DNA of 53,293 nucleotides from contig CAUYUJ010000329.1 of NCBI GenBank assembly GCA_963575745.1, positions 62,001 to 115,293 on the forward strand. The letters run 5' to 3'. Position numbers and translations under genes: made by a program. The stretch comes from Prorocentrum cordatum. Lineage: Eukaryota. Position 1 is the stretch's first letter. Every line of letters begins with the position of its first letter. Below are positions 4,801 to 29,003 of this stretch, in pieces. A model generated the notes under the pieces. It was not told where the DNA came from, did no database searches, and saw only the letters and a program-made list of their open reading frames with translations.

Positions 4801-5814
4801 GGTGATGGTGCCCTTTGTGACATCTGTTGGCAGTGCACCGTGGCCGTAGGTGCGACGGGTAAAAGTACCGCCGTCCAGAGCGACCTAGCATACCTCCACA
4901 AGTTGACCAACTGGATCAAGATGACGCTCTCCCAGGATGGTATCACGAGGTACATGAGAGACGGAGCGCAAGTCATTATGACGGGCGCGCGCTCATTCCC
5001 AGGCAATGAGAAAGATTCGCTGAGGAGAATGGCTAATGTGTCTAGGAAGAGGTATCAGAAGTGGGTCGAATCTGGTCGCCCTCCTGCACACGAGTGCAGA
5101 CTGATGGGCGAGGCTGGTGACGACAGACCTCTGCACTACCCATATGCCAATCTCGTTCAGCGCTTTCTCAACGATTTGAAGTTCCACCACCAACTGACAG
5201 GCGCTCGCGTGAACGTGGGCAAGAAGGCCTGGAACGTGGACGACATGCGTGATGCATGCACGATCCTCGATGCCAGGATCAGGACTGGACAAGCTGGTCG
5301 GAAGAAATGGTGGCTGAACGAGGGCAGACTCGACAAGCAAATGCGGCAGGCTCGCGGACTTGTCACGATTGCCCTCCCTAGAAGGGATGGCACCCGTGAG
5401 AAAGTCACGCAGCGCAAGCTTGCTGCGATTGCTAACGAGTTGTTGGGCTCCCTCGATCCGTCACATACCGACCAGAGGGGGGGTGATTCAGGGATGAGAA
5501 CCGATCCGATCGAACCTGATACACACTCCCATCAGTCTGATGATGCCATGGAGCCGCGCCATCCACCGCCGCCGCCGCGCCCTGCCCCTGGCGATGCTGC
5601 ACAGTCCAGCGCCTCTGGCGCGGCGGACCACATGCCCGCGGGGCCGCGCGCCAAGAGAGCGCGTACCACAGATTACGCCGCCTACTGGCGCGACGACCTT
5701 GAGGACAGTCATTGGGGTCTCAGGTATTGGAGCTACTACATCAACTGTTGGATCTACATCGCGATGAACAACGACGAGTTCGTGTACATCCACGACATCC
5801 AGTACAACGATTAG
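1717..5814 (+). CDS. kptA: Large protein with an N-proximal Tpt1/KptA-like RNA 2'-phosphotransferase (ADP-ribosyltransferase fold) domain (about 1849-2660) and a CxxC..CxxC zinc finger (about 4759-4836)
   Basis: Tpt1 motifs in the correct order: SKDIATMLRH (SKxLSxxLRH), DGYADW (DGW), KNRIE (KxRF), IRCVGGHS (IRAxQGHS), LHHGTAARAWRNILKTGIIP (LYHGT..W..I...GL.P), ELVINMEIATKAGCRFWLGAQGAIMTEDVVP (IDx..A...G..F..S.NGV.LT..IP). Reading continues plausibly past TAG 5812-5814 to a stop at 5923-5925. Confidence 0.8.
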   Translation: MLTRLISHSLVAFQNGSGYRYQNYDDVRYGPELIDDEWLGANKYMSKDIATMLRHEIHYKKFYINQFHDRRVNIWTKTTDREWKIPSNWKSFQEMVQWKFKDRNNHNGPSMNAVVSHFKKDGGNDGYADWNDYYPIFIIRAFQKHIDPQKNRIEIYAKPIPEGGDPSCFDWNSVIAIRCVGGHSCVNPLTKPWNMGWESLQWTDVKYLHHGTAARAWRNILKTGIIPGYVDPSSQRDKHHKPSQRSEACSSTYLDNVQKNPHTSVESYKFYKNEVELVINMEIATKAGCRFWLGAQGAIMTEDVVPAAAVIAIRRLKPHHMHGQQIWPDGATWDCPPLAARPPLSKYEICAYLPGEFIEDPPGIAPAGTDQNMEQPRTTSASAPSAQLGATPASRISGADALDEQMVRVMIQDTNHKADDKEWLIALSYCREALRPITSKITQKDWDRRPAFNDVRMGDFIIIKNWGSIKCYHYANHYPKGNHNTKVPTNKAHIYGPIIHFGVFDKFFAVQIPIFNYGLRWVNIWYNDKSMPLKGVVFALPIRIDEHAIDPTYMNTVLEGPSSCRDQILQHKIDGSLPYLGMPSIYRPRIPRTLTRQPAPRTPDPEELVATPAGDTAPTDDGPQQTAGSSDEPLVTVIVDISNISLTAEEKAVNDNMRADLPAEIRADEHVDASILDNVIDPPEDFLNHPDYDPEEDSRCIKQSYDRRIYRWTSELLVESPMIKMNQIIEVHTGADRIVVDKTQLHLRFEIQFGSKAWNAETYYLNYDHTHKWARDLPICSADHSFKKLVHYLDPETIEESTTGVFRWISKVDQNILMDSIAELRDFTKDAIHQKHPALQTLRDLFKHCIDTFGNPDFPVWKELVETPAAPRDPGAEQDIPQDPGSVASAAPDQETMVRIIAEQTGVNREEGDNESALQEKARRLRTENVCHGDTEDADNDATEHIGLSGERLSRIEIEGLSRSIASRPNAEINREAMDQIGRSLARGQDTRWGSREHLTTEGAPETILHDIARCRNCGRDLSLGIVTGDGALCDICWQCTVAVGATGKSTAVQSDLAYLHKLTNWIKMTLSQDGITRYMRDGAQVIMTGARSFPGNEKDSLRRMANVSRKRYQKWVESGRPPAHECRLMGEAGDDRPLHYPYANLVQRFLNDLKFHHQLTGARVNVGKKAWNVDDMRDACTILDARIRTGQAGRKKWWLNEGRLDKQMRQARGLVTIALPRRDGTREKVTQRKLAAIANELLGSLDPSHTDQRGGDSGMRTDPIEPDTHSHQSDDAMEPRHPPPPPRPAPGDAAQSSASGAADHMPAGPRAKRARTTDYAAYWRDDLEDSHWGLRYWSYYINCWIYIAMNNDEFVYIHDIQYND

Positions 5815-12220: not shown

Positions 12221-13340
12221 GCGAGGAGGAGGAGGAGGAGGAAGAGGAGGAGGAGGAGCAGGAAACGGGAGTGGGTGGGGGGAAGGAGGGGAGGACGAGG
12301 AGAAGCAGCAGCAGGGACAGAGGAGGAGGAGGACGAGGAGGAGAAGGAGGAGGAGGAGGAGCTTTTTTGTCCCCAGCTCTCCTGTGGAGCTTGGTCCGCG
12401 GTTTGTCTTCGCCGTGCCGCGCGTCTCCCCCCCGCCCCTCTCCCGCTCCTGCCGATGCTGCTGCGCTGCCTGGCGCAATGCTGCTGCCACTCCGCCGCTG
12501 CTGCTTCTCGCGTGCCCATCACGGATCCTGCCCTACAGGGGGCTCCACTTCTGCGGCCCCAGCAGGGGCGCTCCCACAGCGTCCGTCCCCAGACCCGTGG
12601 CCTGGCGCACCCCTCCCACGGATATCGTGCCCCACGGGCAGCTCCATCGATGGCCCCCGAGGGAGTGCGCTTCTCTCGCGCCCCGCCCCGCCCACTCGGG
12701 CACGCCGCTCACACGCACCGCGCCCCATGGGCGGCTCCAGCTACTGTTCCGGCGGCGCGCGGGGGGTATCGCGCAGCACCTCCCCGCCCGTCGAGGCACA
12801 CCCGACGGACCGTGTCCCACAGCGAGCTCACAGCTTCAGTGGGGGAGCGCGCGTGGCGTCGCAGTGCCCGTTCGATGCGTTTCGGCACGCCGTCGGCGCA
12901 GACGTGCCCCGACGAGGGGTCTCCGGCTCCCTCCCTCCCGCGGCGCGAGGGTCTTCCGGGCGGGCCGCCTAGACGGAGCAGATTGTTTGCTCGGCTTGGC
13001 CCCAGCTCCAGCTGGTGCGTCGCCGCCCTCGCGCGGAATCGCCTCGCCCGCACGCACATCACACAGCGAAGCCGAATTCGATCTCCCGCTCGAGGCCACG
13101 GGGCTTTCACCACCCCCGTCCTTCGACCGCCGCCGCGTCCTCTCCTGGTCCTGCTCCTGCTCCTGCCACTGATGGTCCTCCCCTTTCCTCCGCCACCTCT
13201 TGCTCGCCCCTTTTGTTCATCATGTCGTCGCTCCTCCTCTCCCTGGCTTTCTCGCGTCTCTTCTCCCTCGCCACTAAAACATAGGAAAACCTGCCCCCAA
13301 ACAACACTTCCTATCCTCGCCTTCTTCTGGGCCGCAAAAG

Positions 13341-13375
13341 GCGAAGACACGTGCTCCTGGGATCAGATGCACCTG
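13341..13375 (+). CDS. Micro-exon of the same transporter (GEDTCSWDQMHL)
   Basis: AAAAG|GC acceptor in phase with the previous exon and CTG|GTCGGC donor; the exact 3' boundary is uncertain. Confidence 0.55.
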
Positions 13376-14242
13376 GTCGGCGCCACCTCCGCCGACCACT
13401 TGAGAGAGGGAGGAGGAAAGGAGAAGTAGGTGGATCGGGGGGAAGGAAGGGGAGTGAGACGAGGAGGATGAGAATGAGGAGGAGGAAGAGGAGGAGGAGG
13501 AGGAGGAGGAGGAGGAGGGAGGGAGGAGGGAGGGAGGGAGGGAAGGAAGGAGGGAGGGAGGGCTTTTTTTTTGACTGTACTAGGCTCGTTGCAAGTTAGC
13601 TTGAGCGCAGCGGCCAACAGGACTGGCACAGGCTGCACACGAGAAGCCCGAGAGCATGGACGCTGAGCTGCTTCCGCTCTCGTCCCGAAAACTGTCGGGA
13701 GAGAGGTATTGGCGCTGCGGGAGGGGAGAAGAGGGATCATATAGGAGAGAGGAGGAGTTTGCAGCGCCGTGCGAAGAGAGACATCAGCGGGGCCCTGCTT
13801 CGTTGCCCATAGCAGGGCAGCCCTCGAGGCAGAGAGCAGTGCAGGGCTAGAAAAGAAGTATCTGGCCTGGGAATGCCTACCCAAATTAAGTAGACTGTGC
13901 GGAGAGAGAAGGAGCTGGACGGAGGGCCAAAATGGCCGTGGGCGGTCGAACCGCCTTGTTGCTGCTGAGCAGCACATTGGGGGAGGGAGGAGGCTTGATA
14001 GAGAGAGGGACAGAATGGCATTGCCGTGCTGCAGGGCGGACGCTGCAGCTGAAAGGCCTGTACGGGCCGGCCGCGGCGGGGAGGTGGGTGTGCCTGGGCG
14101 CTAGCCGAGACCAGACAGCAGAGACCCACCTCCGTGTGGCCCCTCACAGGCACACAGGGACCAAGGGGACCCTGCTACACCTGGACGAGGGCCAAAGAGA
14201 CAAGCCAGGGCAAAGTGCCACGGTCCTCTCACGAGGCACTTG

Positions 14243-15070
14243 TGGCTAGGGCTGTCTAGGTAGTGAGCTGCCAAGGCGAACGAGTATTAGGCCTGCTCAC
14301 CACCTAGGAGACTCAGCCGTGGCGAGTCTGCGAATTGCTGTGTGAGCTTAGCCGATCGCTGTTTAGCGAGGCTGCTAAAATGTGCCGCATTGGCCGCACT
14401 CGTGCGGCAAAGTGAGAAGACGCGCCCAAGAATGGCAACTACTCTTGCACAGGCCCTCAAGGGGGGGCCGGTGGAAAAAAGAGTGACTAGGCGGGCTGCC
14501 GAGTGAAGTATTAAGCTGGCTCCGCCCCTGTGTGGCGCATTGGCGGTTGCACCATGGGCGCCCATCCCATGTTGAACAGAGATGGTGCCGACTGGCGCCG
14601 CAAGAGTTGCAGTGAGAGTGTGTACCTGAAGGACCCACTGCCGCGGACTGCATGTCGGCTCGGCCGACCTTAAATTGGAGACGCGGCGTCTCCTTGGTAG
14701 ATTTTGACTCGTGTGATGGCTAGGGCTGGATAGGTGGTGGGCTGCAGGTAAACCGGGATCCGAGCAATGTGCTAGCCCACCACCTATGCGTGAGGACTCA
14801 GCCGTGGCGAGTCTGCGAATTGAGATGTGTGAGCGGCGTTTAGCCGCCTCACTGTTAGCGGGGCTGCTCAAGGTTGCTGAGCCGCACTATGACGGGATAG
14901 GCTAGTGCTGCTAGGCTCGCGTGGCCTACAACTCAGCTATGCAGGACGGCTCGACCGACCTAGAATTGGAACGGCATGGCTCCAGCTGTTTAGGTGGTGG
15001 GCTGCCGAGGTAAGGAGAGAACGCAGGAAAGATGAATAAAGGGAAAGTATTAGGCGAGCCCACCACCTAA
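14243..15070. repeat. Three related hairpin modules in the LINE 3' region
   Basis: Inverted arms: 14256-14268/14295-14307, 14731-14743/14774-14786 and 14990-15003/15057-15070 (TAGGTGGTGGGCT..AGCCCACCACCTA). An identical 28-mer occurs at 14310-14337 and 14795-14822. Confidence 0.85.
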
Positions 15071-15151
15071 GTGGGAGCGCTGCTAGTTGCGCCGAGGTCG
15101 CTTAGGACGACCTAGAAGGGCGCTGATTGATGCAGCACTAATGTGGCTCGC

Positions 15152-15631
15152 TCAGGCACCGAAGGGCGACGGGTTGAGAGTGCGGGCGGCAGCCGAGAGC
15201 GCCGAGAGACCTGCCGCTGTCGCCGCCGCTCGCGCCTGGGCCTCTTGCGCGGCAGCCTGCTGCTGGTTGTAGTGGTCCCTCAGCATGGCCTCCACCTCTG
15301 CGATGGTCGCCAGGCCTGGGGTCTCGATCCACTCCCAGTCCCAGGTTTCGACGACCTGGCTGTCGATGACGTCCAGCGACTTGAGCTTCCAGACGAACGG
15401 GTAGAGCATGCCGTTGGGCATCTTCCACTCGCCAGGGCATGTGGAAGGCCACCACTTTTTGAACTCACGCGTGGCGGCCGTGTATTGGGAGCCCTGCCAT
15501 GCCGAACCAGCATACGTGTCTCCTGAGAGGCCGAAGAGCTCCCGCGTGTTGGGCGACGCCCTGCTGGCCTCGGCCGCGCCCGTCTCCGCCGCGGCCGCTG
15601 CGGAACCGCCCGCGGGAGGCATGGGCACCAT
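15152..15631 (-). CDS. Hypothetical LINE cargo protein (about 159 aa; Trp-rich globular core, Ala/Gln C-terminal helix)
   Basis: ORF 15152-15781 with a likely ATG at 15631; strong GC3 bias; sequence KKWWPSTCPGEWKMPNGMLYPFVWKLK..WDWEWIETPG is not low complexity. Confidence 0.55.
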   Translation of the reverse strand: MVPMPPAGGSAAAAAETGAAEASRASPNTRELFGLSGDTYAGSAWQGSQYTAATREFKKWWPSTCPGEWKMPNGMLYPFVWKLKSLDVIDSQVVETWDWEWIETPGLATIAEVEAMLRDHYNQQQAAAQEAQARAAATAAGLSALSAAARTLNPSPFGA

Positions 15632-15729
15632 GGCGGCGTGGGGCGCGCTGAGAGAAGGGGGGAGTGCATAGGGAACAAAAAGAAGTAGCCCATAAGCCAA
15701 CGGCCAAATATGAGTGAAACCTAGCTGGC

Positions 15730-16152
15730 CTATGCTTGCATCTGTGTGAGGAGGACCCTCCTGACGGGCCGATTGATGCATGCTTGGCCTGGTGCGGAGT
15801 CTATAGGGATGAGGATGTTACCGCTACGCATGTTGACCCGCAGAGAAAGGCCGGTGCGGTAGGGTATGCCCGTGCCAAATAGGATGGGCCGTGCATCCAT
15901 CTCCTGAAGAATGGGGAGGTGAAAAAAGCGCGGCCTTTCCGCAGTGGATGGCAGCCTGGTCTCCTGCCCATGGAATTGCTCCATTAGGGGCCCTACATTG
16001 ATGGGCAATGGGGACCAAAGCGGAATGTGGCCTGTCGTTATTACTACCATCCACTGCACTACTGTAGGCGGTGGTGGCACTGACTCAGTGGGGGCGCAGC
16101 GGTAGTCGCCGTGCTCGAACTGCGGCAGGTGCTGCGCCTCTGGGGTCGGCAT
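15730..16152 (-). CDS. Hypothetical LINE cargo protein (140 aa)
   Basis: ATG-initiated ORF starting 11 nt after the stop of the upstream ORF; hydrophobic beta-rich composition; no recognised family. Confidence 0.4.
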   Translation of the reverse strand: MPTPEAQHLPQFEHGDYRCAPTESVPPPPTVVQWMVVITTGHIPLWSPLPINVGPLMEQFHGQETRLPSTAERPRFFHLPILQEMDARPILFGTGIPYRTGLSLRVNMRSGNILIPIDSAPGQACINRPVRRVLLTQMQA

Positions 16153-16163
16153 GGCCTGAGGGA

Positions 16164-16856
16164 TTAGGGTTCGGGGAGACGGAGGATACGAGCGAGGTGG
16201 GACAACGGGAGGCAGAATGGCCGAACCATGATCATGGCCTGGAAATCTATAAGGATGGGGCTGCCAGCCGCTGCATCCTGCAAAAGACGATGAGGGCTGA
16301 GGGAGGACTGCTCCCAGGCCCCCGATTGGAGCAGGTCCAGAAAAAGCTGGTCCGGCACGTAAACAGAAACTAGCCCTATGGTGGGTGAGAAACGCGCATC
16401 ATAGGGGCCGTCCCCCGCAGCACATTGAGGGTAAATGTGGAGTAGGTTAGGGGAGTTGGCCTCGCGCCAGCGCCCATGCCAGCGCTCGAGTGTGCGATTA
16501 ACGGCCGTGGGCAAATCTAGGTGAAGCACAGGGCCCACGAAGGCGCGCGCGTGTGGCCATGCGGGCGGCCCGCTCTCGAGCTGCCATGTGGCTTGCCACT
16601 GGGGTACCGCATTATGCTGGTACACCGTGGCGGGAGACAGAATGAGTGCGCGGCGCCTCGCGCCGCCGCTGAGAAAGCGGTAGACTTGCTGGTGAGCCAA
16701 AAGAAACCGCTCAGCCAAATGCTTCCATAAGGAAGCCAAACGAGAGGCTGGTGGCGAGATGCTGCGCGGCTCTAATTGTTGCCCCGGGTACGCCTCAGCA
16801 GCGGGCATGTCCTCGTCTGCACCGGCGCTGCCCAGGATACTGGGCTCGCTCCTCAT
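16164..16856 (-). CDS. Hypothetical LINE cargo protein (230 aa)
   Basis: ATG overlaps the upstream stop as ATGA (16853-16856); globular-looking sequence; no recognised family. Confidence 0.45.
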   Translation of the reverse strand: MRSEPSILGSAGADEDMPAAEAYPGQQLEPRSISPPASRLASLWKHLAERFLLAHQQVYRFLSGGARRRALILSPATVYQHNAVPQWQATWQLESGPPAWPHARAFVGPVLHLDLPTAVNRTLERWHGRWREANSPNLLHIYPQCAAGDGPYDARFSPTIGLVSVYVPDQLFLDLLQSGAWEQSSLSPHRLLQDAAAGSPILIDFQAMIMVRPFCLPLSHLARILRLPEP

Positions 16857-18240
16857 GGCCTGAAGGGGATGAGGCGGAAAAGGGAGCTGGTAAGAGGAAA
16901 GAAGGAGAGGTTAGGCTGAGGCTGAGGGTTAGCTGCCTGGCAAATGCTAACGCCTGGCAGCATCACCTCCTTCATGAGGTTTACGCGGCCTCCTGGGCGA
17001 AAGACGCTGACCGCAATGCGAGAGGCTTTCGCCTTCTCGCAACTGCAGCCTGAGGCGCTCCCTGTGTATCCTGTCGATACGGAGCTGGTCCTGCCTATGC
17101 TCCTCTTTGAGCTGGGCAATTCTATTCTCGTGCTCCTTGAGAAATGAGCTGCGCTGCTCGTCCGCTGCTGCGGCTGACGCAGCTGCAGCTGCGACTGTAG
17201 GCGGCAGGCGCGGAGCTACCTGGGCAGCATGGTGAGACTTGCGAGCCTTATGGCGCCTTGGGGGAGGAGAGGCTGGAGGCGAGGCCGGGCCGTGGGAGTC
17301 CTGCGGGCTGCTTTGAACCTCTACTGGTTCTTGGCGCTGTGGCGCAGGCTGCTCGTCCGAGGCTGCATCAGACGCTTTGGCAGGCGAGCGTGAGCGCTGA
17401 GCTGCATGGGCCGCGCGGTGCGCCTTGGCCTTGCGAGCCCGATGGTGCCCAGGGGGAGGAGAGGCTGGAGGAGACGGCGGGCCGAGGGACTCCTGCGGGC
17501 TGCTTTGTGCCTCAGCAGGTTCCCTGCGTATCTGCGCTGGCTGCTTGAGCGCGCTTTTGCGCGGCTCGGTGCGTAAGCGCGAATTATAAGCCACCTTGGG
17601 GGGCTCGGCCATGAACTCGTCCGCAAATTGAGACCTGTTTGCGCTTGCGAGTTGCAGAGGCGCGGGGCGCAGCGGACTGTTCCGCCGGCTCTGGAGAGTC
17701 ATGCGGAGGAAATGGTGAGGAGGCAGAGGAATATGAGGCGTCGTCCACCTGATCCAGCCTTCTAGGCGATGCTGGGGGACTAGAAGCCCTGCTCGGCTGG
17801 CTCCTGTGCGGCGCAGCTTTTCGAGACTGTTTGCGAGGCTCGCGCAGGGGTGGAGGCGAGGTGCACGCTGAGAGGGGTGGAGAAAAAGGAGAGGCTGCCT
17901 GGCCTATCCAGCCTTCCGGAATGGCTGCTTTGGCAGGCACCCCGGGATGATCTGGGGGCGGCAAGGGAGGCAAGGCGGGCGGAGGTGGCGGAGGATGAAA
18001 AGTGGCCCCGTAAATGTGCCTGCCTCGACCCATGGGGGGGCCGCTGAAATCGCCAGGCGGCCGCGGGGGATCTGAGGCTGGTGGGGTGCTGGACAGAGAG
18101 CGCTGCACCGCTTCGGCTACCTGAGCGAATTGGGCAGGCGAAAGTAGGGGTGGAGGAGCTGAGGCGGACCGAAATTGGCCCGGTGGGGGATGCTTTGGCC
18201 TGGCTTCACGCGGCGCCAGCACCCATGGCCGTCTGGACAT
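16853..18240 (-). pseudogene. Frameshifted Pro/Ser-rich plus coiled-coil ORF downstream of the DNMT
   Basis: ORFs 17584-18240, 16947-17702 and 16853-17119 overlap in series. The ATG lies 10 nt after the DNMT stop. Internal duplicated peptide QSSPQ(E/D)S.GP.SPPASPPP..H.ARK. Confidence 0.45.
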
Positions 18241-18250
18241 GAGACGCCAG

Positions 18251-19978
18251 CTAAGTGTCGAAGATGTCGGCGTTGAAGTCCTGCGGGGCGGGCGAAGCAG
18301 GGTGCCGCATGTGAGAGAGGGAAATGCCCGTGAGCGGGACGGGTCGTGCCGCTTGCCGGGAACGCTCGGCCCTGATTTGTCTGGCCCGTCCCCTATTGCA
18401 CTGGATGCGCCTTTTCTGATCCAGAGTTAGGGAGGGCGGGGGTGGCGGCGGAGGGGGGGTGGAGGGAAAAATGGGGGCTGCGCCCAAAAAGTGCATGGCC
18501 TCTTGTTCCGCTTCCGAGTCCTGATCGGCGGGATCAGGCTGCTCGTGAGCGTCTAAGGGGAGGTCGCTATGGCGCCGCGGCTCGCGGGGCCTGGAGAGAG
18601 CCAAAAGCCTGCGGAAGCGGTCCAGCTCCCCATCTACTTTGGCACGGGTGCGAGGGGCGGAGGGATCAACAAAGTCGGGGCCTAGCCAAAAGTCGCTGGT
18701 CATGGAAGCGGAGAAGCGGATGAGGGGAGCCAGAACCGAGGGGTCCGACTGGGGAAGAGGATCCTGTGGGTCGTCAACAAATGGTAAAATGACGTCCTGG
18801 TATATAGCCTGGGCGAGACATTCGTAAAGGGCAGAAGGATAGGTCTTTTTGTCAGCAGTGAAAAAGCGGTCATTCTCGTCCTTACCTAGAAGTGTGCGAT
18901 GTGACCCCCGTGGGTGCGTGCACTTGGTCCCTTGGGGACGGTTAGTAAGGAGCTCTGGGAGCGAGGGAAGGCGGAGCGATAGCAAGCGCGTGGGGGCTTT
19001 GCCGAATTCGTTAGGAGGGCGGCAAGACGGCTGGAACATGCACTGGTCGATGTCCGTGGTGCGGACCGCCGGTGCAGCAGCCAGGGCCATTAAAGGCCTC
19101 CATATCCAGCTAGGCTGCGCCCTGGGTTCCCAGTGGGCAGGGCATGGATGTTCCATCCATGCCGAGGTACCCATTTCCAAATGAGCGGCAAAGAGGAGAA
19201 TCAATGAAGCGAGTAGCAAGTTGGCTATCTGCAATTGGCGGGATTGCTTGGGCGTTGCGTTGGGGATGCCCCAGTAGTGCTCGGTAGTGCGTAGCGGCGG
19301 TGGTCCGTTGGGCTTCCAGCGGGCCGCGCAAAAGGTTTCGCACGGCGGGCCCCCACCTGAAACAACCACTCTGCCGGCATAAATATGTTGTTGCCAGAGC
19401 TTAATGGTCTCCGACTTGGTGAGATCGCCTGAGTCGGGGTCGATAGCAATATCGACCGACAGTATATGTACCTCTATCGAGGGGTCAGGCGTGAATGATT
19501 CCAGGTGATGCTGGATATCCCCTTCGCGCCTGCGGCCAGAGAAAAGATTGAGGATGAAAATTTCCTTGCGCCTTATACGGGCTGGAATTTCTCTGGTCGC
19601 TAGACCAGAATAATCCTTCGGTTGAAATGGCCATTCAGGCAGCGCAGGAAGAGGAGGAGGTAGTGGCGGAGGAACATCGGCGGGAAAAAGTAAAGAGACG
19701 GCATCAGAGTCCAGCGCGTAATCTGTAACCGCCATTATGGCGCGAGCGTCCGCTTGCGACAAGTGTTTGGCAAAGTCACGAAAGTGCTGTGTGGTAGCAC
19801 GCTTGGCACGATGTGCCGGTAATGCCACACGCCAGCGACCTACGCCTGACTTAACTTGTAGCTTGGCATTTTCGCAGCGTTGCATAGCAAGCGCTGCGAT
19901 TTGCTCTTGGGGAAGGCGTTGGGAATGGCACAGGAGGTAGAGAGCACATATGAAGGAGTCGAAACAGAGGTGCTGCAA
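18251..19978 (-). CDS. C5 cytosine DNA methyltransferase-like domain; C-terminus of LINE ORF2 (separated by a frameshift near 19980)
   Basis: Ordered DNMT motifs: ILNLFSGRRREGD (I), LSVDI (II), GDLT (III), GGGPPCETF (IV, catalytic PC, about 19340), WMEHP (VI), DQCMF..KAPTRLL (VIII), KTYPSAL (X). Confidence 0.85.
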   Translation of the reverse strand: MQHLCFDSFICALYLLCHSQRLPQEQIAALAMQRCENAKLQVKSGVGRWRVALPAHRAKRATTQHFRDFAKHLSQADARAIMAVTDYALDSDAVSLLFPADVPPPLPPPLPALPEWPFQPKDYSGLATREIPARIRRKEIFILNLFSGRRREGDIQHHLESFTPDPSIEVHILSVDIAIDPDSGDLTKSETIKLWQQHIYAGRVVVSGGGPPCETFCAARWKPNGPPPLRTTEHYWGIPNATPKQSRQLQIANLLLASLILLFAAHLEMGTSAWMEHPCPAHWEPRAQPSWIWRPLMALAAAPAVRTTDIDQCMFQPSCRPPNEFGKAPTRLLSLRLPSLPELLTNRPQGTKCTHPRGSHRTLLGKDENDRFFTADKKTYPSALYECLAQAIYQDVILPFVDDPQDPLPQSDPSVLAPLIRFSASMTSDFWLGPDFVDPSAPRTRAKVDGELDRFRRLLALSRPREPRRHSDLPLDAHEQPDPADQDSEAEQEAMHFLGAAPIFPSTPPPPPPPPSLTLDQKRRIQCNRGRARQIRAERSRQAARPVPLTGISLSHMRHPASPAPQDFNADIFDT

Positions 19979-22787
19979 GAGACTGGCGCGTGAGCCAAAG
20001 GGGAGACTGGCAGGCCGGGCGCACCTGGGTGTCCGGTACTAGGCCTTTGACCCTGTGGGACAAGGTCCAGTGCACCTGGGCAACGTGTTGTTTTAGCCCC
20101 CGAAATTTTAGAAATGTGCGCGAGCACCATGGGCAAGTGAGCACCGCTGGGTAGTGCGCTGCCAGGCGTTGCTGCTCGATCGGGTGCTGTACATGGTCCG
20201 TCGGCAGGGGGATCCCACATGGGACAGTAATGGCAAAAAAGTGCTTGGCAGCTGCCTCGGCGAGTGCTGCGCGAGCGAAATGCTGTGCTCCCGCTGTAAG
20301 GGCATTGCGAATTCGACGCTTCCATCCTGTGTGGGATTGGAGAGCGAGGGCCTCCCACTGGTCCAGGTGCGACATTGGCGGGGGCATTTGTGCTAGATTG
20401 GCAGAAAATTCGCCCAGCCACTGTAGGTCCTTCTGCACCAGGGCAAGCCATGAGTCTGGGACGTCTGCGGCTAATTTGGCCAGCAGGGAGGTGAGGTGCG
20501 GAGGTCCCGTGCGGAGGAGCCTGCCAAAGAGGCGCAGACGCATTGCACTAAAGATATGCGGCAGAGGGGGTCTGCAGACCTTGGCCAGGACGAATGAGTC
20601 CCGCTCTGCCGTGCTGTCGCACCTTGGGAGGTGGAGCAAGCGCCTGTGCATTCTCATGAACTCTCCTTGTAAGGAGACTATTTGCGGTCCAGTGAGCAAT
20701 GGCCAAACCGCGGCATTAAAAAGGCGGGAGGAGAGGATGAGGGAGTCCAGTAAATGCAGGTGCTCATGAAGCCAGGTACTAGAAGAGTGGCGCAAGAATT
20801 GACGGGCAAGATTGCGCCAGCTGGGGGCCGCCTCCGATCGCCTGTGGGCGAGTTCGGGGCCTATGCTGCCCTTTTCGTCCAGGTGCGTACCTAGATATGT
20901 GTATATTCTGGCGAAGTGGAGGGAAAAAGGCGAATGCCCGAGAGTAGGTGAGACTAGCATTTGCCCATTGAGCCCTTGGGGGTCCCAGAGCTTGCGACGA
21001 AGTGATATGGAAGCTTCCCCTCTAAACTGAAAAAGGCACATGGTTTTGTTGACTTGAAAATTTAGCTTGATGCCTGAGAGCGCGTAGGCTTCGACTACGA
21101 TGGCCATTAGCACGGGCATGGCGTCAAATAGCTCCTTAGTGGGACCAAGGAAGGCATAGGCACCATCATCGAAAAAGCATGAGTCCAGATATTGGTGCAC
21201 TTCTGTCTCTGCGGAGGCTATATTGTCCTTGTTATGAGCGAAAAAAGAGCGCGGGGCATCCTTGTCCACCTGGACATTGAGAATAAGGTGTGCAAGCGGT
21301 GATTCGGTGAGCTGCTTGACAGCTTCGTTATTGGCTCGGGCCATGAGGAAGTTGAAAAGAACGTCTCCGAGCTGCTGTCCTGGGATGGTGCCACGTAATG
21401 TGAGTGCTACCCCTGAGGCTCCTGGGTAGAAGGCCCAGGTATGCTCGCATGCAGCCGAGATTTGTGCGTGGAGATGCGGGGGGAGACCAGCCTCCTGCAG
21501 TATAGGAGGGGCAGAGAGCAAATGTCTTATTAGTTCTTCACCTGTCTCCTGGGGGAGATCAAGGGAAGCAACTAAGTAGTAAAGGTCAGCTTGTTGCGAG
21601 TCGCAGTAAAATATGAGCTGTCGGAGGGCCCTGTAAAAGGCTGAGACAGCATCTATAAATATGTATGCTGAGGAAATGCGCTGGCTATTTGCGTAGGCTT
21701 GGTGCGCTAAGACCGCGAGCGTGGCGAAATCTGTGCCCCGTCCAGCGATGCCGCCAGACTGTGAGGCGCCTGCCATGGGAGGAAGATATTCCACCAGTTC
21801 TTTGCGCAATAGGGCACGATGCCGCTTGGAGAAGTGGGGGGAGGCCATTACCGAGCGGGAGTTGGCCATTATGGCCGGATTGCCTTTACCTTTAAAAATG
21901 TCGAAGTTGTACCCTCCCCGCCAAGCCAGCGGTTCCTCAAGGCGCACCTGCGCCTTGAGGTGGACCGGGTAGTACTGCTTCGCAAGTAGACGGTGAAACG
22001 ACTTGACAAAGGCTCCTTTGAAGCCATCCACGCTGGCTGCCGAGTCTGGGGTCCTGGCATAGGCGCGCTCGATTTGCGCTAGGGAGAAGAGGGAGTATGG
22101 AGGGGGAACATCCACAGTAAGGTCAGCGGGCAAATACGATGCACTAGCGTCGTAGGCCTTGGCATGTTTGAGCGGGATAACTGCACCATGCTCCTGTCGA
22201 GCAAAATGGGATAGCCACGTGTCGGCCGCTTGGGTGGCGTCTACCACGAAGGTGCCCGCTGCCGTGGAGAGGATAGGTAGGGGAGAGGGGCGTAGCTTCT
22301 TTTTGGAACCCACGCCCAACGTGCGTAAGCGCGCAAAGGCAGTGCATTGTTGTGAGGTCTGCCATGCCTCGTGAACTTCGGCGGCAATGCCTTGTAGGTG
22401 AAAAGCGGCATCCAAGTCGACGGAGCAACGTACTGCCTGTGTGAATTGAGCTAGGACGATGGCCCTGATGGCGCTTGCGCGCGCGCGTAATTGAATGGCA
22501 GCCGCGTGTGCGGTACCTATGGTAGGCGCAGAGCAAGCATGCGGGAAGCGTGTTTTAGCAACGCGTGTAGGCGAGGATGCTAAAAACTGATGCAAGCAGG
22601 CCATGCGAATTCTGGGCTTCCATTTAATGGAGGCATTAGGGTCAGCCATGCTGGCACGCATGCTGCGGAGAGCAGCGCCGAGCTCCGCTAGTTTGGCAAA
22701 AGTATTATTAATTGCGGGCATCAGCGAGAGCTCTTCGTGATGTCGGAAGGCCGCTTTGGGACGTGTAAATGCTTGCCTGGATCGCAC
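19851..22787 (-). CDS. LINE reverse transcriptase plus C2H2 zinc finger (ORF2 middle)
   Basis: AASVDG, W.GG..FDIFKGKG...NSRSV, SQSGG, FIDAVSAFY, GTIPGQQLGDVLF, FFDD (about 21165-21176), GIKLN...KT, YTYLG; CPWC..F....GLKQHVAQVH. In frame with the upstream ORF across a single TAG at 22839-22841. Confidence 0.92.
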   Translation of the reverse strand: MRSRQAFTRPKAAFRHHEELSLMPAINNTFAKLAELGAALRSMRASMADPNASIKWKPRIRMACLHQFLASSPTRVAKTRFPHACSAPTIGTAHAAAIQLRARASAIRAIVLAQFTQAVRCSVDLDAAFHLQGIAAEVHEAWQTSQQCTAFARLRTLGVGSKKKLRPSPLPILSTAAGTFVVDATQAADTWLSHFARQEHGAVIPLKHAKAYDASASYLPADLTVDVPPPYSLFSLAQIERAYARTPDSAASVDGFKGAFVKSFHRLLAKQYYPVHLKAQVRLEEPLAWRGGYNFDIFKGKGNPAIMANSRSVMASPHFSKRHRALLRKELVEYLPPMAGASQSGGIAGRGTDFATLAVLAHQAYANSQRISSAYIFIDAVSAFYRALRQLIFYCDSQQADLYYLVASLDLPQETGEELIRHLLSAPPILQEAGLPPHLHAQISAACEHTWAFYPGASGVALTLRGTIPGQQLGDVLFNFLMARANNEAVKQLTESPLAHLILNVQVDKDAPRSFFAHNKDNIASAETEVHQYLDSCFFDDGAYAFLGPTKELFDAMPVLMAIVVEAYALSGIKLNFQVNKTMCLFQFRGEASISLRRKLWDPQGLNGQMLVSPTLGHSPFSLHFARIYTYLGTHLDEKGSIGPELAHRRSEAAPSWRNLARQFLRHSSSTWLHEHLHLLDSLILSSRLFNAAVWPLLTGPQIVSLQGEFMRMHRRLLHLPRCDSTAERDSFVLAKVCRPPLPHIFSAMRLRLFGRLLRTGPPHLTSLLAKLAADVPDSWLALVQKDLQWLGEFSANLAQMPPPMSHLDQWEALALQSHTGWKRRIRNALTAGAQHFARAALAEAAAKHFFAITVPCGIPLPTDHVQHPIEQQRLAAHYPAVLTCPWCSRTFLKFRGLKQHVAQVHWTLSHRVKGLVPDTQVRPACQSPLWLTRQSLAAPLFRLLHMCSLPPVPFPTPSPRANRSACYATLRKCQATS

Positions 22788-22838
22788 ATATCGCTTCCAA
22801 GCCGCGATAGCTGCCAGCAGGAAAAGGTTGCTTGCTTC

Positions 22839-24669
22839 CTATTGAAGCGTGTTGGCTTGGCTTATAATTAAAGCTCTGGCATCCATGAGCCTCAGGGTGG
22901 CCATGGAGACGCGGGAATTCGAAGGTGCGCGACCTGTAGACGTGCGGGGTTGGGGAAATGCCTGTAGCATGGCATTGCGCGCTTCCCTGTCCAGGATGAG
23001 CGCGTGGTCGGAGGCGTGCAGGTCGAAAGTTAAAGCTTCAGGGGGAGGCGAGAAAGCGTCTTCAAAAAGCTGTCTGGCCGACGGGTCGAGGTATGCAGTA
23101 GGATCGTGCGGAATACGCATGACCTGGCGTCCCTGGTCTTCATTAGGTCGGAGCTGTAACTTGAAACGGCATACTAAGCACGTGGCAGCGTGGTCTAGCA
23201 CTGCGAGTGCTAAAGTAAGAGAATACTTGACTTCGCATTCATTGGCAGAGGCGCCTATGGGTATAGCTATGTAGTCCCTGCGCTTCCAGTGCTGTTTGAA
23301 GGCGGGATCACGTGCTGGCGCGATCCATGTGCCCGCCCCCATAGGGTGTGGCACAAAGGTGGCCGGCAGCCAAAGTTTAGATGCAAATAGGAATCGATGG
23401 CAAAAGAAGCCAGCCGTGTTAACTTGCTCCGCGTGTTGTGGGCCAATGGCCGCTGATGTTTGCGTGCCCACTGCAGCATTGGAGTCCATAAGGACAAGAG
23501 TAGGAGTGGGCTGCGGTAAAATATGGTCGTGCACGTGTCTAAGGTGCTGCCACCATGCGGCCTGCTCGTGGAGAGGACGCCCGGAATGATGAGCACGTGC
23601 CACGAGGATGCTGAAACGTAGGCCGTTCTGACTGATGACGGCCGCGATAATGCGCGGGTCTTGGTGTACAATACGCACGCTGTGAGACTTAATAGGGAAA
23701 GTGGGAATGCCTTTGGCATTGGGAAAAACGGGCGTGGTAAGGTTGACCCATAGCGCGCAGCCGCAAGCATGAGTTCCAGCTTGAGACTTTGACAAAAAGA
23801 CAACGTACGGGGGAACCTGGCGTTTGCCAGAGCCCGCGGCTGTGACTCGCGTCTCTTGCATACCGATAACGTCGAGCCCATTGCGTTGAAAAGCGGCGGC
23901 CAGTTGGTGGAGGCGCCCTTTGACGGCCACGCCTGTAAGCCTGGCTCTTTGGGAGATGCGCGAAGCAGGCGTGAGAGAGAGAATGTTGGCTGAGGCTAGC
24001 CTGAGACAGCATGATGCCGTGGCGTCTGCGATCGGGGCTGCCTCTTTGGAGAGACCTGGAAAAACATCAGCAAGCGAGGTGCACGGGGGGAGAGGAGGAT
24101 TGAGACTAACTTGATGGTTCGGCGGGTAAAGCGCACGCTGTTGCTGAGGAAGGCACTCAAGCCAGAGCCATTCCAAAATGTGCGCATTGTCTTGGAGAAA
24201 GCTCATGAGGGGCGGAAGCACTGGAGGAGGTAGCAGTGCGAGGGAGTATAGTCTGGCGACCGTGTCAACCATTTCGTTGAGCGGGTCAGCTTGGTGACCG
24301 TGCACGTGCTGCCATGTAAAGCGACGCTTCAGGCCAAGAACCTTGCACAGACTGTCGAGGCGGCTTCTATGTTCCATTAGTGGCTCGGCCACGGTACCGC
24401 CTTGGGCGGTGGCGACAACGTCCATGTTGTCTGAGTGAAAGGTGAGAGGAACGGCGGGAGGGAAGGGGGACTGTAAAGCCCATAACGCCGCCCAGGTGGC
24501 GGCATCGAATTCCGCTTTAGCGGAGACTCTAGTTGCTCCCATTGTCTGCGCGGTGGGACACCCTAGGAAGCCTAGAAAGTGTCGAGTGCCGTTAAGCCAT
24601 GCAAAGACCAGAAAAGCCCACGCTGGCGGGCCAGCGAGATCTCCTTTGGAGGCCCCTCCGCTGGCGTCA

Positions 24670-24708
<39 letters not shown>

Positions 24709-24901
24709 CGGAATCAAAAGCCGCGTAGGGAGTATCGAAGACAAAGCTGTGCCAGGTGGGGATGGAGGAGGAGTGGAGGGCTGGAAAAATGACATCGAAG
24801 TCCCTGACCAACTGTATGGAGGTAGCCGTAAGCACCGGTAGCATCCACCCCATGGGCGGAAGCGGGCTGCGGCGTATACCTTGCCGCCCCCCCAGGTTCA
24901 C
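22839..24901 (-). CDS. LINE ORF2 N-terminus: RNase H followed by AP endonuclease; frameshifted by a (TA)n expansion at 24671-24705
   Basis: RNase H: IYTDAS, AKAEFDA, FHSDN, WQHVHGH..DPLNEMVD. APE: ASANILSL, IGMQETR, LMDSNA, TW, RRDYIAI, LDH. Confidence 0.85.
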
Positions 24902-27468
24902 CCGTGGGCAGTGTCCGGGGGAGCGACCTGAAAAACCGTGCCGTCGCGCGCTGCCTGGGCTAAATCGTCCTGAGCAGCTTGTGCCGCGTGGGCCTCGGCT
25001 TCAGCTCGAAGGTCCGCAGCCTCTGCTTCTGCCATTGCATCTGCAGGACTGCGTGGGGCAGACGTGGCGGATGTCCCTGCACGTGCCTTTGGCTCAGCCT
25101 CGGCTGTCTCGGGCCTGGGGCGACGTGAACCACGAGGGCTCTTGCTGCGTGCTGCCTGCCTAGCTACAAAATCTTCCTCGCTAATGCCTGAAAGCGCGCG
25201 CTCTTCGGCCTGACCCGCGCGTGCGGATCTGCCCCTGGCCTGCGCGCTTGCGCTGCGGCGGGAGGATGCCATGGAGACTGGCTCCCCTTTTTCATCGGAG
25301 AGGTCCCACCCAAGCTGGCTGGCAGAGCGGGTAGGCGGGGGCATGCCGTTGGGATCCTCTACGGAAGCTGCTGCCGGGCTTTGCTGGTTGATAGCCTCCT
25401 CCCTAACCGAGCTATCTTGAAACGAGGGCGCAGTGGTGATCGCCTCCCCTGTCGGCGACTTGGGCACTGGCGCTGGCCCTGGTTTGGGCACGAAACCTAG
25501 GCGGAATAGCGGGCCTGCTTTGGGGGAAGCGCGGGCCTGTTCACATCCTAACGGCGCTGTGGTCCCCCCCCGGACCGTAGCGCCGTGGCTAGAAGTGGCG
25601 GCTGGCACTAGTTGCCCGGCCTTGATCTGTGAGACTAGGGTGTCTACTGAGTTGCGCATGGCTTGGGCCTGGGAGTCAAAACTTGCCTTGATGGTGGCAA
25701 CCTCCCTGGCCATGGCCTCGGCGTTGCTTTGCATGGCCGCGGAGAGTGATGTGATGCAAGGCTGTTCCAACCCTTGGATGCCTGGGAGGGGCGCAGGGCA
25801 GTGGAGGAGTGGGGGAGAGGTCGGCGCTGCCGTGAGGGGCGTGGCCGTTCCCAGGTCATGTGGGTCGGCTTGCTCCTCGCCTGTATGCGTTGCAGAGAGT
25901 GCCGCAGTGCGCTGTACTGCACCTGGCTCCTCCGCCGCGTCCCCCATCATGAGCGAGTCAGTGATGGCGGCGGCTGGCGGTGCTTGCGACTTGAAATAAG
26001 CTAGTAGCATGGAAGCCTGGCTGAGGTCCGCTTGTGCGGTCTGAAGGGCCAGGGCGATGTTGCGCACGTGCTCCTCCGCCTGCGCTTGTTTGGCTGCCAA
26101 TTGCTCACAATCGGCCTGCAGGGAGGCCACCACGTGCTCTTGCTCACTAATCTTGGCCAGCGGATCCCTCGCGTTGGCCAATTGAAAGTTAACTAGTGAA
26201 ATCTCCTTTCGGATCTCGGTGATACGCATATCGGAGTGTCCTAGGAGAGTTGAGGCCCTAAGCTGCAGGATTAGTGCCTCCTTGCTCATTGCAAGGGCCT
26301 TGCGGTGCTCCAGCAGGCGGTCGGGCTCGAGCGGGGGGTAAAGCCAGGCTGAGTGAGAGTGCGCCTCGTCTGGGGCAAGGGTAGGGCACTGCGCTGTGAG
26401 CTCCGCCTCCGAGAGCTCAGTGACAGGATCCAGCGCGCCGAGCGAGGCGGAGGCCTGTTCGGCCGCGAGGAAAGGAGACTGCTGTACAGATGTTGGGCCG
26501 AAGAGTGTAGGGGGAGTGGCCGCACCGTCGTGAGGAGGCGCAAAAGGGGAAGGCTGTGTCTGGGGAGACTGTCCTATGATGCCTGTGTCCCTAGCCCCGT
26601 GTGGGGTGCCAGGAGCCTTCGATGGAGGCTGTTCCCCATCTCTGCGCTGGTACTCGCGATCTCTACGAGCATCGTCCTTCTCGCGCTTCTTGCGCTCCTT
26701 GCTGGAGATCCCAGCCTCTGGGACCGCATGATCTCCTGGGGGTGCGGGGAGCAGGCCGTATTCCGCTGCCCATGCAGCCACCTGATCGAAGGACGGCGCC
26801 CCTGTCGGTGCGTGGCCCTTGCCTAAGCGCACCCCCCCCGTGCTTCCGGAAAAGGAGCGAGGGCCCTTGTGGCCCGGCCCCGCGCCCCCATCATGCAGGG
26901 GCCTGTGCTGCCCCTGACCTTTGGCTGGGCCGACCTTCGCATGTTGGTGACCTGCTGCCCGAGTCGGAAAACAGTTGGGACATGAGACGTCCATAGTGGT
27001 ATTGGCCCGGCCACATTGCAGGCAATACCAGAACTCGGGAGGGGCGCTGCCTTTCTGGTGCACTGGCTGCTGGGGTGGAGGAAAAAAGTCCATGGGAAGG
27101 CGCGTGGCATAAAGAGACGGTGAGGGAGGAGCAGCCAAACGCTGGGTGGGAGAAGTAGCCATACCGTGCTGCTGCAGCCCAGATGTTGGCGAGAGAGGTG
27201 GCGCGTGCGGAGGGGGTAGGGTAGGAGGAACAGCGCCTTGCTGGGGGATACCCTGGAAGGAGTGGTGCTGCGAAAGCATCATCGCAGCCTTGTGCACCCT
27301 TAAAAGAGTGCGGGCGTTAGCGCGCTGCTTGCGCGCTCTGCGATGAGGAGCGGGCTCGTCGCGAGGCCGCTGGGGATAGGAAGGAGGAGAGTAGGCAGGC
27401 GTCGCGCCTGGCAGATGGCGGCCCGATAGGGCGTCGCGGCGGGGATCGGCGCGGAACCGGTTGTGCAA
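24898..27468 (-). CDS. LINE ORF1 (RanBP2-type zinc finger, coiled coil, Pro/Ala-rich)
   Basis: 856-codon ORF directly upstream of ORF2. WYCLQCGRANTTMDVSCPNC (26971-27030) fits W-x-C-x2-C-x3-N-x6-C-x2-C, followed by a heptad-rich segment. The true start codon is uncertain. Confidence 0.8.
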   Translation of the reverse strand: MHNRFRADPRRDALSGRHLPGATPAYSPPSYPQRPRDEPAPHRRARKQRANARTLLRVHKAAMMLSQHHSFQGIPQQGAVPPTLPPPHAPPLSPTSGLQQHGMATSPTQRLAAPPSPSLYATRLPMDFFPPPQQPVHQKGSAPPEFWYCLQCGRANTTMDVSCPNCFPTRAAGHQHAKVGPAKGQGQHRPLHDGGAGPGHKGPRSFSGSTGGVRLGKGHAPTGAPSFDQVAAWAAEYGLLPAPPGDHAVPEAGISSKERKKREKDDARRDREYQRRDGEQPPSKAPGTPHGARDTGIIGQSPQTQPSPFAPPHDGAATPPTLFGPTSVQQSPFLAAEQASASLGALDPVTELSEAELTAQCPTLAPDEAHSHSAWLYPPLEPDRLLEHRKALAMSKEALILQLRASTLLGHSDMRITEIRKEISLVNFQLANARDPLAKISEQEHVVASLQADCEQLAAKQAQAEEHVRNIALALQTAQADLSQASMLLAYFKSQAPPAAAITDSLMMGDAAEEPGAVQRTAALSATHTGEEQADPHDLGTATPLTAAPTSPPLLHCPAPLPGIQGLEQPCITSLSAAMQSNAEAMAREVATIKASFDSQAQAMRNSVDTLVSQIKAGQLVPAATSSHGATVRGGTTAPLGCEQARASPKAGPLFRLGFVPKPGPAPVPKSPTGEAITTAPSFQDSSVREEAINQQSPAAASVEDPNGMPPPTRSASQLGWDLSDEKGEPVSMASSRRSASAQARGRSARAGQAEERALSGISEEDFVARQAARSKSPRGSRRPRPETAEAEPKARAGTSATSAPRSPADAMAEAEAADLRAEAEAHAAQAAQDDLAQAARDGTVFQVAPPDTAHG

Positions 27469-27471
27469 CCG

Positions 27472-27482
27472 CTCGAGCCAAA
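27472..27482 (-). promoter_or_regulatory. DinoSL relic at the LINE 5' end
   Basis: TTTGGCTCGAG vs TTTGGCTCAAG (10/11), at the element boundary. Confidence 0.6.
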
Positions 27483-27520
27483 CCTAGGGAGGGAGGGAGG
27501 GAGGAGGGAGGGGGGGCGGG

Positions 27521-29003
27521 CAAGCTAGATGCGCTCGCGTCATATATGACATCCTACCCCTCCCTCCCATCCCTTACCATGGCGTAGATCCCCTCTCTAC
27601 TCGCACAGTCGGATGTCGAGCAGGGCAATGATCCCGAAAGGGTACGCGATGCATTGTAGAGCACGGCATGGCATGGCGTAGAAGAGCACCGCAAAGCGTA
27701 GTATGTCACAGCATGGCGTAGCGTGGCGTAGTGAAGAATTGCATCACAAAGCTTTGCAACGCAAAGCATGGCATCGCACAGCGGTCCCGCACAGAGCATT
27801 GCATAGCATGGCGTTGAAGATCAAAGCGTAGCACGGCATAGCACGACGTGGCACTTAAGCACTGCATATCACAGTTTCAGCTGAAGGCATGGCATCGCGC
27901 AGCGGAACGCAACCTAGCATTGCATTGCATGCCGTGGCATGGCACGGGAAATGACGCCAGCGCTGCAGCGGGAGCACGATTCGGAACGAGCGGAAGCGCG
28001 GAAATGAGGCCAGCGCTGCAGCGGGAGCACGATTCGGAACGAGCGGAAGCACGGAAATGAGGCCAGCGCTGCAGCGGGAGCACGATTCGGAACGAACGGG
28101 GCCCGAAAATGAGGCCGGCGCCCCAGCGAGAGCAGCATTTTGAAAAAAAATGCAGGCGAAAACCCAACTCCGGGGAATCCTGTGTGTAAAAAACAATACG
28201 CGGGGGGGGGGCGAACACTCCCAACCCGTCATCAGGGGAATGAGGAGAGTAGTATTCATATGCAAGCTAGGTGCGCTCGCGTCATATCTGACATCCTGCC
28301 CCTCCCTCCCATCCCTTACCATGGCGTAGATCCCCTCTCTACTCGCACAGCCGGATGTCGAGCAGGGCAATGATCCCGAAAGGGTACGCGATGCATTGTA
28401 GAGCACGGCATGGCATGGCGTAGAAGAGCACCGCAAAGCGTAGTATGTCACAGCATGGCGTAGCGTGGCGTAGTGACGAATTGCATCACAAAGCTTTGCA
28501 ACGCAAAGCATGGCATCGCATAGCGGTCCCGCACATGACATTGCATAGCATGGCGTTGAAGATCAAAGCGTAGCACGGCATAGCACGACGTGGCACTTAA
28601 GCACTGCATATCACAGCGTCAGCTGAAGGCATGGCATCGCGCAGCGGAACGCAACCTAGCATTGCATTGCATGCCGTGGCATGGCACGGGAAATGACGCC
28701 AGCGCTGCAGCGGGAGCACGATTCGGAACGAGCGGAAGCGCGGAAATGAGGCCAGCGCTGCAGCGGGAGCACGATTCGGAACGAGCGGAAGCACAGAAAT
28801 GAGGTCAGCGCTGCAGCGGGAGCACGATTAGGTACGAGCGGGGCCCGAAAATGAGGCCGGCGCCCCAGCGAGAGCAGCATTTTGAAAAAAATGCAGGCGA
28901 AAACCCAATTCCGGGGAATCTTGTGTGTAAAAAACAGTACGCGGGGGGGGGGGCGAACACTCCCAACCCGTCATCAGGGGAAGCAGGAGAGTAGTATTCA
29001 TAT
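27521..29003. repeat. Tandem duplication of a 742-bp repeat unit (27521-28262, 28263-29003), each with GCATG-like pentamers and about three 53-bp subrepeats
   Basis: CAAGCTAG..GCGCTCGCGTCATAT starts at 27521 and 28263; GCCAGCGCTGCAGCGGGAGCACGATTCGGAACG recurs at 27956, 28009 and 28062. Confidence 0.9.

Follow-up and report, generated by a model that had tools for sequence, protein, structure and literature searches.

A cassette of four open reading frames (ORFs), named A, C, D and E here, was found behind the reverse transcriptase (RT) gene of a retroelement in Prorocentrum cordatum DNA. The window, by which we mean the whole stretch that was analysed, spans 53,293 nt (contig CAUYUJ010000329.1), and all coordinates refer to it; the element and all cassette ORFs lie on its minus strand. 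The element runs from about 27483 to about 13563 and is probably a copy, now dead, of a 13.9-kb non-LTR (non-long terminal repeat) retrotransposon of the long interspersed nuclear element (LINE) type, whose family has the four-gene cassette after ORF1 and a very long ORF2 for endonuclease and RT (Table 1). The cassette occupies 3.1 kb, with ORF2 on one side and the 3' untranslated region (UTR) of the element itself, which bears hairpins, on the other. Judged from sequence comparison, ORFs C and E are protein-coding genes that remain intact in diverged relatives. One or two ORFs are regarded as enough for a LINE, and an element family that keeps four more genes after the RT and ahead of the 3' UTR would, if true, widen the known coding range of non-LTR elements.

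The packing of the ORFs in the cassette exceeds chance. Same-strand ORFs of at least 100 amino acids (aa) cover 0.967 of the region 15152-18240, a value reached in none of 1000 dinucleotide shuffles (mean 0.32, maximum 0.79), and the best of 124 real control pieces from the window had an ORF cover of 0.88. One uninterrupted frame of 430 aa or more, the length that ORF A reaches in other copies, arose in only 3 of 2000 shuffles. The first-pass annotation of this DNA had described four tightly spaced same-strand units, which holds for the spacing (10, 90, 11 and 98 nt between ORF2, A, C, D and E) and has to be amended for the first unit, which is frameshifted in this copy. The 10-nt gap after the upstream stop was found as described, the 11-nt gap at 16153-16163 can be read directly from the sequence, and the Trp-rich 159-aa ORF placed about 100 nt further on is ORF E, with its 98-nt spacer. 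The letters of the ATGA stop/start overlap at 16856-16853 are likewise present, but the TGA closes a third frame (16853..17215) and not that of ORF A; ORF A comes to its end 90 nt ahead of the ORF C start, and the ATGA joins no two real ORFs. By eye, no obvious promoter or terminator signal was seen between the cassette ORFs. ORFs C and D have a 13-nt start context in common, YYYTCAGGCCATG, with no third site in the 53-kb window, a post hoc count since the pattern was derived from these two starts themselves.

To place the cassette relative to the element, we used contigs from four public sequencing runs of four studies (X1-X4), which were aligned to the window at a likeness of about 80-100%. 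No run contained more than 0.33 of the sampled window words, so the runs represent related genomes and not the source. Contigs covered every bin from 13517 to 27475 in all four runs. Among the contigs listed (32 pieces of about 31,000), the junction between the ORF2 stop and the start of A was bridged in X2 (18014-18494) and X4 (18014-18285), the C/D junction in X4 (16109-16694), and the junction between the E stop and the 3' UTR in X1 (14795-15344), X2 (14931-15391) and X4 (14926-15373). The A-C and D-E spacers were also under contig cover, with indel rows at 16946, 15700 and 15656. The summed depth of the cassette was 0.87 to 1.2 times that of the endonuclease-RT part in each run, which are rough averages of a measure that, as the tool warns, is not suited to ranking parts of a gene. 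All these support the earlier proposal that the cluster lies inside the element, with the hairpin-bearing 3' UTR following the block and not preceding it. A one-off 3' transduction private to this copy, which the first-pass annotation had considered, is refuted, because contigs in four runs cover the cassette and bridge its junctions. A nested second transposon was set aside as well, since no repeats flank the cassette. As a separate observation, the bin 18170-18686 was, in X1 only, roughly 15-fold deeper than the bins next to it, with poly-G loose ends at 18430; this probably represents an unrelated G-rich repeat with a short common stretch.

We then compared the cassette proteins with their relatives. 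ORF C has three relatives, at 92, 69 and 77% identity, all of which end at the same stop. The start Met is kept in both full-length relatives (92% and 69%), the latter being 230 aa long, and the 77% relative is a protein of 201 aa that begins 29 residues in. In a neutral simulation that allowed substitutions only, the frame of ORF C stayed open in 3.5% of the runs at 69% identity and in 6.9% at 77%, and frameshifting indels would lower this survival further. Rate heterogeneity along ORF C was marginal (permutation p 0.065-0.068).

ORF E is more widespread, with 22 relatives in word searches at 54-95% identity and family proteins of about 120-180 aa. Its start Met is aligned at the same place, or within a variable N-terminal region, in 20 of the 22 relatives, and 19 alignment columns do not vary. 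When 1.84 billion representatives were searched with a profile, 15 clusters came up, all of 59-182 aa and never fused to other domains. The clusters comprise 10-21 distinct variants, each on one or two contigs of about 0.5-2.8 kb, and such numerous variants on so few contigs each fit a multi-copy element. The only named relative (75% identity) comes from the EukProt transcriptome of the green alga Pyramimonas sp. CCMP1952. With the C and E alignments as queries, no DNA of diverged relatives was found in metagenome contigs or in viral contigs. Prokaryote genome contigs gave three loci. Two of Rhodospirillales type were rejected as chance matches: they belong to a bacterial ORF resembling a biotin ligase, whose C-terminal part has only ERWYGRW in common with the query. 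The third is a 23-residue match. A frameshift fusion of D to E was also rejected; the two frames overlap by 88 nt, but no slippery site was seen by eye, and the relatives of E start at or near their own Met.

Four relatives were found for ORF D, all at 88-91% identity. A relative of C and a relative of D both lie on a contig of 2271 nt, and a relative of D and a relative of E both lie on a contig of 2067 nt, and these equal lengths are no more than a hint that the relatives share a contig and that the neighbourhood of the ORFs is kept. In this copy, ORF A consists of two frames, 18240-17584 and 17903-16947, split by an extra base at 17628. This base is absent from all contig depth in X1, X2 and X3 and from 141.5 of 265.2 in X4; among the contigs listed, X2 17570-17931 and X3 17575-18074 run across the site. 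By arithmetic, without this base the two frames become a continuous ORF of about 430 aa that ends at the TAG at 16949-16947. The product is rich in Pro, Ala, Ser and Arg and contains an in-frame tandem repeat of 64 codons as well as a C-terminal stretch that looks heptad-like by eye. The ratio of non-synonymous to synonymous substitution rates within the internal repeat is about 0.5 over 34 codons. A splice that would lead from ORF A into ORF C, with a GT near 16968 as donor and the CAG at 16860 as acceptor, was rejected, as it reads into a stop.

Comparisons with known proteins returned no assignable function. Of the ORFs submitted to Pfam, NCBIfam and PHROGs, none gave a match, except that the second half of A produced two Pfam rows at chance level (E values 0.2 and 3), and ORFs C, D and E had no matches in sequence and profile searches of PDB. 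In the ESM Atlas there was nothing usable for E, and C obtained only scores of at most 0.86 to unnamed clusters. The AlphaFold model of ORF C has a mean predicted local distance difference test score (pLDDT) of 32 and is unusable for a fold search. The model of ORF E shows a five-stranded beta sheet followed by a long helix, with a mean pLDDT of 59 and values of 70-87 over residues of about 70-140; Foldseek found no match for it in PDB or BFVD at E values up to 0.001, and only the long helix was matched by VIA-align (Z 5.6). Coat proteins of single-stranded RNA phages recurred for this model, with E values of at least 0.1 and template modelling (TM) scores of at most 0.2, and were disregarded. 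The profile and fold checks on the cassette ORFs thus ended without a known family or fold, the model of C being too poor to search, and C and E would represent two orphan protein families. These searches speak neither for nor against the suggestion of the first-pass annotation that the cassette could encode DNMT (DNA methyltransferase) partners or anti-silencing factors.

Several points weigh against reading the cassette as a set of genes that serve the element. The linkage comes from short contigs, none of which spans the whole block. Single ORF lengths are unremarkable, as a longest ORF of at least 230 aa occurred in 274 of 2000 shuffles and a set of four ORFs of at least 140 aa in 19 of 2000. 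ORF D is unproven as a gene, because at the distance of its relatives a neutral frame stays open in 59% of the simulations, and ORF A, likewise only a candidate gene, is frameshifted in this copy. We also classified 37 differences as synonymous or non-synonymous (positions 15301-27413, from the best-supported 40 of 2397 differences between the window and the contigs). The cassette had 11 non-synonymous to 3 synonymous differences, and the endonuclease and RT together had 7 to 8, with the rows in the overlap of the RT and the putative methyltransferase frames left out; constraint on the cassette may therefore be weaker. The G+C content at third codon positions of ORF E is 0.82, compared with 0.57-0.68 in the other ORFs of the element, and this outlying codon usage could point to a separate origin or to another level of expression. 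Finally, reinitiation after an ORF of about 2150 codons is expected to be inefficient, and leaky scanning would be unable to pass so many AUGs.

Some of these points fit the idea that the cassette, or if not all of it then ORF E, stems from the host. A master copy would have acquired it on a single occasion, by 3' transduction or by template switching, and it would since have been carried along without serving the element, in which case the relatives would be host genes of related species. The high third-position G+C content of ORF E and its wider occurrence (22 relatives, compared with 3 for C and 4 for D) fit such a host-derived passenger, as do the difference tally and the lack of a retroelement-like domain in any cassette ORF, and the searches with E gave no partner C or D at a similar distance. 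However, the cassette begins only 10 nt past the ORF2 stop and is followed by the hairpin-bearing 3' UTR, whereas a transduced flank is expected beyond the 3' UTR, and its junctions are covered and bridged by contigs in all four runs. The clusters of E, made up of many singleton variants on one or two contigs, are a better fit to copies of an element than to a single-copy host gene, and the family is tiny and stands free of other domains. We consider capture of passengers unlikely, and weakly prefer accessory factors of the ribonucleoprotein (RNP) or of integration as the role of the cassette products.

The cassette would probably be transcribed within the full-length element RNA. In other LINEs, ORF2 is reached by termination-reinitiation or stop-start coupling, as in human L1 and at the UAAUG junction of silkworm SART1, and in green algae constructs with a short spacer from stop to ATG are translated in a like manner. 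The pairs ORF2-A and C-D, with the shortest spacers, would probably be translated by termination-reinitiation in the same way, and the GCC ATG starts behind pyrimidine tracts may either aid reinitiation or act as acceptors for subgenomic spliced RNAs. In green algae, several ORFs are translated from one mRNA (PMC7896298), and the inter-ORF distances of 10-98 nt fit a polycistronic mRNA of the green-algal type. The available parts of these reports state that a stop-ATG spacer of 6-10 nt works well in Chlamydomonas (PMC7896298, citing Onishi and Pringle) and favour leaky scanning as the mechanism (PMC7896298, PMC11291117). The cassette products could act on the element's own RNP or on the integration step. 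ORF A might then be a basic, disordered protein that ends in a coiled coil and behaves like an ORF1p-type chaperone, and C, D and E might be small partner proteins.

The acceptor-like sites also raise the question of whether each ORF is instead expressed from its own mRNA, by spliced-leader addition or cis-splicing at the pyrimidine-tract-CAG sites before the GCC ATG of C, D and E. The stretch before ORF C, with two CTAAC words, a long pyrimidine tract and a CAG right before the GCC ATG, resembles a splice acceptor; a similar tract with CAG precedes ORFs D and E, and the start context found only at C and D agrees with this route. The tract before D, however, doubles as the coding 3' end of C. 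A dinoflagellate leader motif had no matches in the window at up to three mismatches, and the only named relative is green-algal. Spliced leaders are not known from the Pyramimonas lineage. No splice-like joint was seen inside the cassette among the 15 of 56 contig joints listed, from runs that are not on record as RNA. Separate mRNAs by splicing are, on balance, improbable. Thus, of the polycistronic module proposed in the first-pass annotation, the packing of ORFs as in a polycistron is retained and the spliced-leader route is without support; on the present analysis we would favour termination-reinitiation, with the spliced leader as the least supported route.

It is highly improbable that the ORFs are non-functional, stay open through a GC-rich composition with few stops or as remains of an ancestral gene in decay, and yield no product today: the unremarkable lengths of single ORFs, the lack of deep relatives for D and A and the poor model of C would agree with this, but the ORF cover and an A-sized single frame are rarely or never matched in shuffles, C is intact at 69% identity, and E is intact at 54-65% in many variants.

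Table 1 Features of the retroelement and its cassette, in element order; coordinates are window positions.
Feature	Coordinates	Strand	Description
ORF1 frame	27483-24898	-	861 codons stop-to-stop; first ATG 27282; no family match
ORF2, first part	24713-22842	-	Apurinic-type endonuclease, PF03372 28.7 bits (cut-off 24.5)
In-frame TAG	22841-22839	-	Splits ORF2 in this copy
ORF2, RT part	22838-19851	-	FFDD (YxDD-like) and upstream D..AF motifs, by eye
Frame earlier called DNA methyltransferase (DNMT)	20008-18251	-	C-terminal end of ORF2; GGPPC-type (PC-containing) motif by eye only
ORF2/A spacer	18250-18241	-	10 nt, from ORF2 TAG (18253-18251) to A start ATG at 18240
ORF A	18240-16947	-	About 430 aa as a single frame in other copies; split here
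A/C spacer	16946-16857	-	90 nt; two CTAAC words, pyrimidine tract, CAG immediately 5' of GCC ATG
ORF C	16856-16164	-	230 aa, TAA stop
C/D spacer	16163-16153	-	11 nt
ORF D	16152-15730	-	140 aa
ORF E	15631-15152	-	159 aa, Trp-rich (8 Trp, counted by hand)
3' UTR	15151-13572	-	About 1.6 kb, three hairpin modules
A9 tract	13571-13563	-	Candidate 3' end, 1.58 kb past the E stop; followed by (CCCT)n-type repeat

Many variant contigs lie over the element in all four runs, and their differences from the window reveal the state of this copy. One base at 20009 is absent from all aligned contigs in X2 and X4 and from part of the depth in X1 and X3, and by arithmetic its absence fuses the RT frame to the frame earlier called DNMT. 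Intact copies thus have one ORF2 frame of about 2150 codons, which runs from the endonuclease through the RT to the C-terminal part. The copy in the window is broken because of the in-frame TAG in ORF2 together with one surplus base each at 20009 and 17628. Within the window, none of the element's ORFs was found a second time.

The domain assignments within ORF2 differ in strength. Upstream of the endonuclease domain there is a weak RNase H match (PF00075, 18.2 bits, below the cut-off of 25.8). The RT frame was unmatched by Pfam RVT_1 even at E values up to 10 and had no match in a PDB sequence search. The DNMT label of the first-pass annotation was not borne out, as the frame matched no Pfam family at E values up to 10, no NCBIfam family and no PDB sequence, and a PC-containing motif was recognised by eye only. 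A weak C2H2 finger lies at 20067-20141 on the minus strand (residues 900-924 in the RT frame), shortly ahead of the junction to the methyltransferase-like stretch, with E values of 0.01 for zf-C2H2_4 and 0.0026 for Zn_SUZ12, both under their cut-offs. A perfect (TA)17 microsatellite at 24671-24705 is located at the 5' end of the ORF2 frame, between the ORF1 stop and the first ATG (24542).

The 3' UTR contains hairpins at 14990-15070 and 14730-14787, both with perfect 14-nt stems, and a third at about 14256-14306 with a stem of 12-13 bp, a two-sided (compensatory) change and one G-U pair; the folding z-scores are -6.4, -5.2 and -4.1. Smaller GC hairpins stand beside these modules, and the repeat units are spaced by about 260-485 nt. 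Contig joints that step back by about 500-530 nt were observed as well (14570 to 14042 and 15014 to 14518). The number of hairpin modules appears to vary between copies. Rfam gave no match at gathering scores in the whole window, and only weak chance-level matches in 13000-28500 at E values up to 1. The poly(A) that had been reported 1.6 kb past the cluster corresponds to no more than the A9 tract. The 5' end of the element, near 27483, adjoins a (CCCT)n tract and a satellite of very high depth. Low-complexity sequence of the (CCCT)n type adjoins both ends of the element, and because both flanks are of this type, a target-site duplication is indistinguishable from the repeat. The self-comparison of the window revealed no terminal direct repeats.

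The satellite directly upstream of the 5' end (27476-28742) has a summed contig depth of about 1,400 to 51,000 across the four runs, compared with tens to hundreds over the element. It contains a 53-nt tandem repeat (27942-28134) and a duplication of 481 nt (27520-28000 and 28262-28742, 97.7% identity), and an inverted relative is found at 43804-44094 (89.8% identity). Elsewhere in the window, a frame of 1365 codons on the plus strand (1717-5814) carries in its N-terminal part a Tpt1/KptA RNA 2'-phosphotransferase domain (PF01885, 27.1 bits, cut-off 26); this is the Tpt1 element named in the first-pass annotation, and its region is the control piece with the highest ORF cover.

Taken further, the data could tentatively be read as evidence of a six-gene non-LTR lineage of about 14 kb, probably from prasinophyte-like marine algae, in which a conserved accessory cassette behind the RT would be expressed by serial reinitiation or subgenomic splicing, and in which ORF E would found an element-borne family across marine plankton; we regard this wider reading as possible but doubtful. 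For the local annotation, the corrections are that the DNMT is unconfirmed, that ORF2 is one frame in other copies and that this copy is dead. Such a family would offer a natural test case of how eukaryotic ribosomes reach ORFs beyond an ORF of 2000 codons, and C and E would be orphan families whose role in retrotransposition or host interaction is testable.

Among known systems, bicistronic LINEs such as L1 and SART1 resemble the element in carrying several ORFs on one RNA with short stop-start junctions, and in a 3' UTR structure that in those elements is used by the RT. They have two ORFs, whereas six are found here, with four after the RT at spacers of 10, 90, 11 and 98 nt. SymbioLINE-Dnmt of Symbiodiniaceae (de Mendoza et al. 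2018; PMC5890265) is likewise of LINE type, has many copies, conserved UTRs and unusual extra coding capacity beside the RT. According to the portion of that description at hand, however, it lacks a poly(A) tail and its DNMT is ORF1, which precedes the RT ORF, whereas the methyltransferase-like stretch here is unconfirmed and follows the RT, forming the C-terminal end of ORF2, a position that rules out membership in SymbioLINE-Dnmt. Four ORFs follow ORF2 here, and no downstream cassette was found in the same portion of the SymbioLINE-Dnmt description (PMC5890265). In the wider literature, titles and abstract openings revealed no LINE with several ORFs behind the RT, which is no proof of absence.

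Polycistronic nuclear genes of green algae also consist of closely spaced small same-strand ORFs, each of which is translated independently (Gallaher et al. 2021, PMC7896298; PMC11291117). Those loci are host genes with short upstream ORFs for which leaky scanning is favoured, whereas a retrotransposon ORF of about 2150 codons lies upstream here. Extra ORFs beyond the standard set, with no function assigned, are described in the available part of a report on bdelloid rotifer retrotransposons (PMC5408684), which differ from the present element in being of the LTR class and in having ORFs unrelated to A, C, D and E. If the wider reading is true, the cassette would be to a LINE what the accessory genes are to a complex retrovirus.

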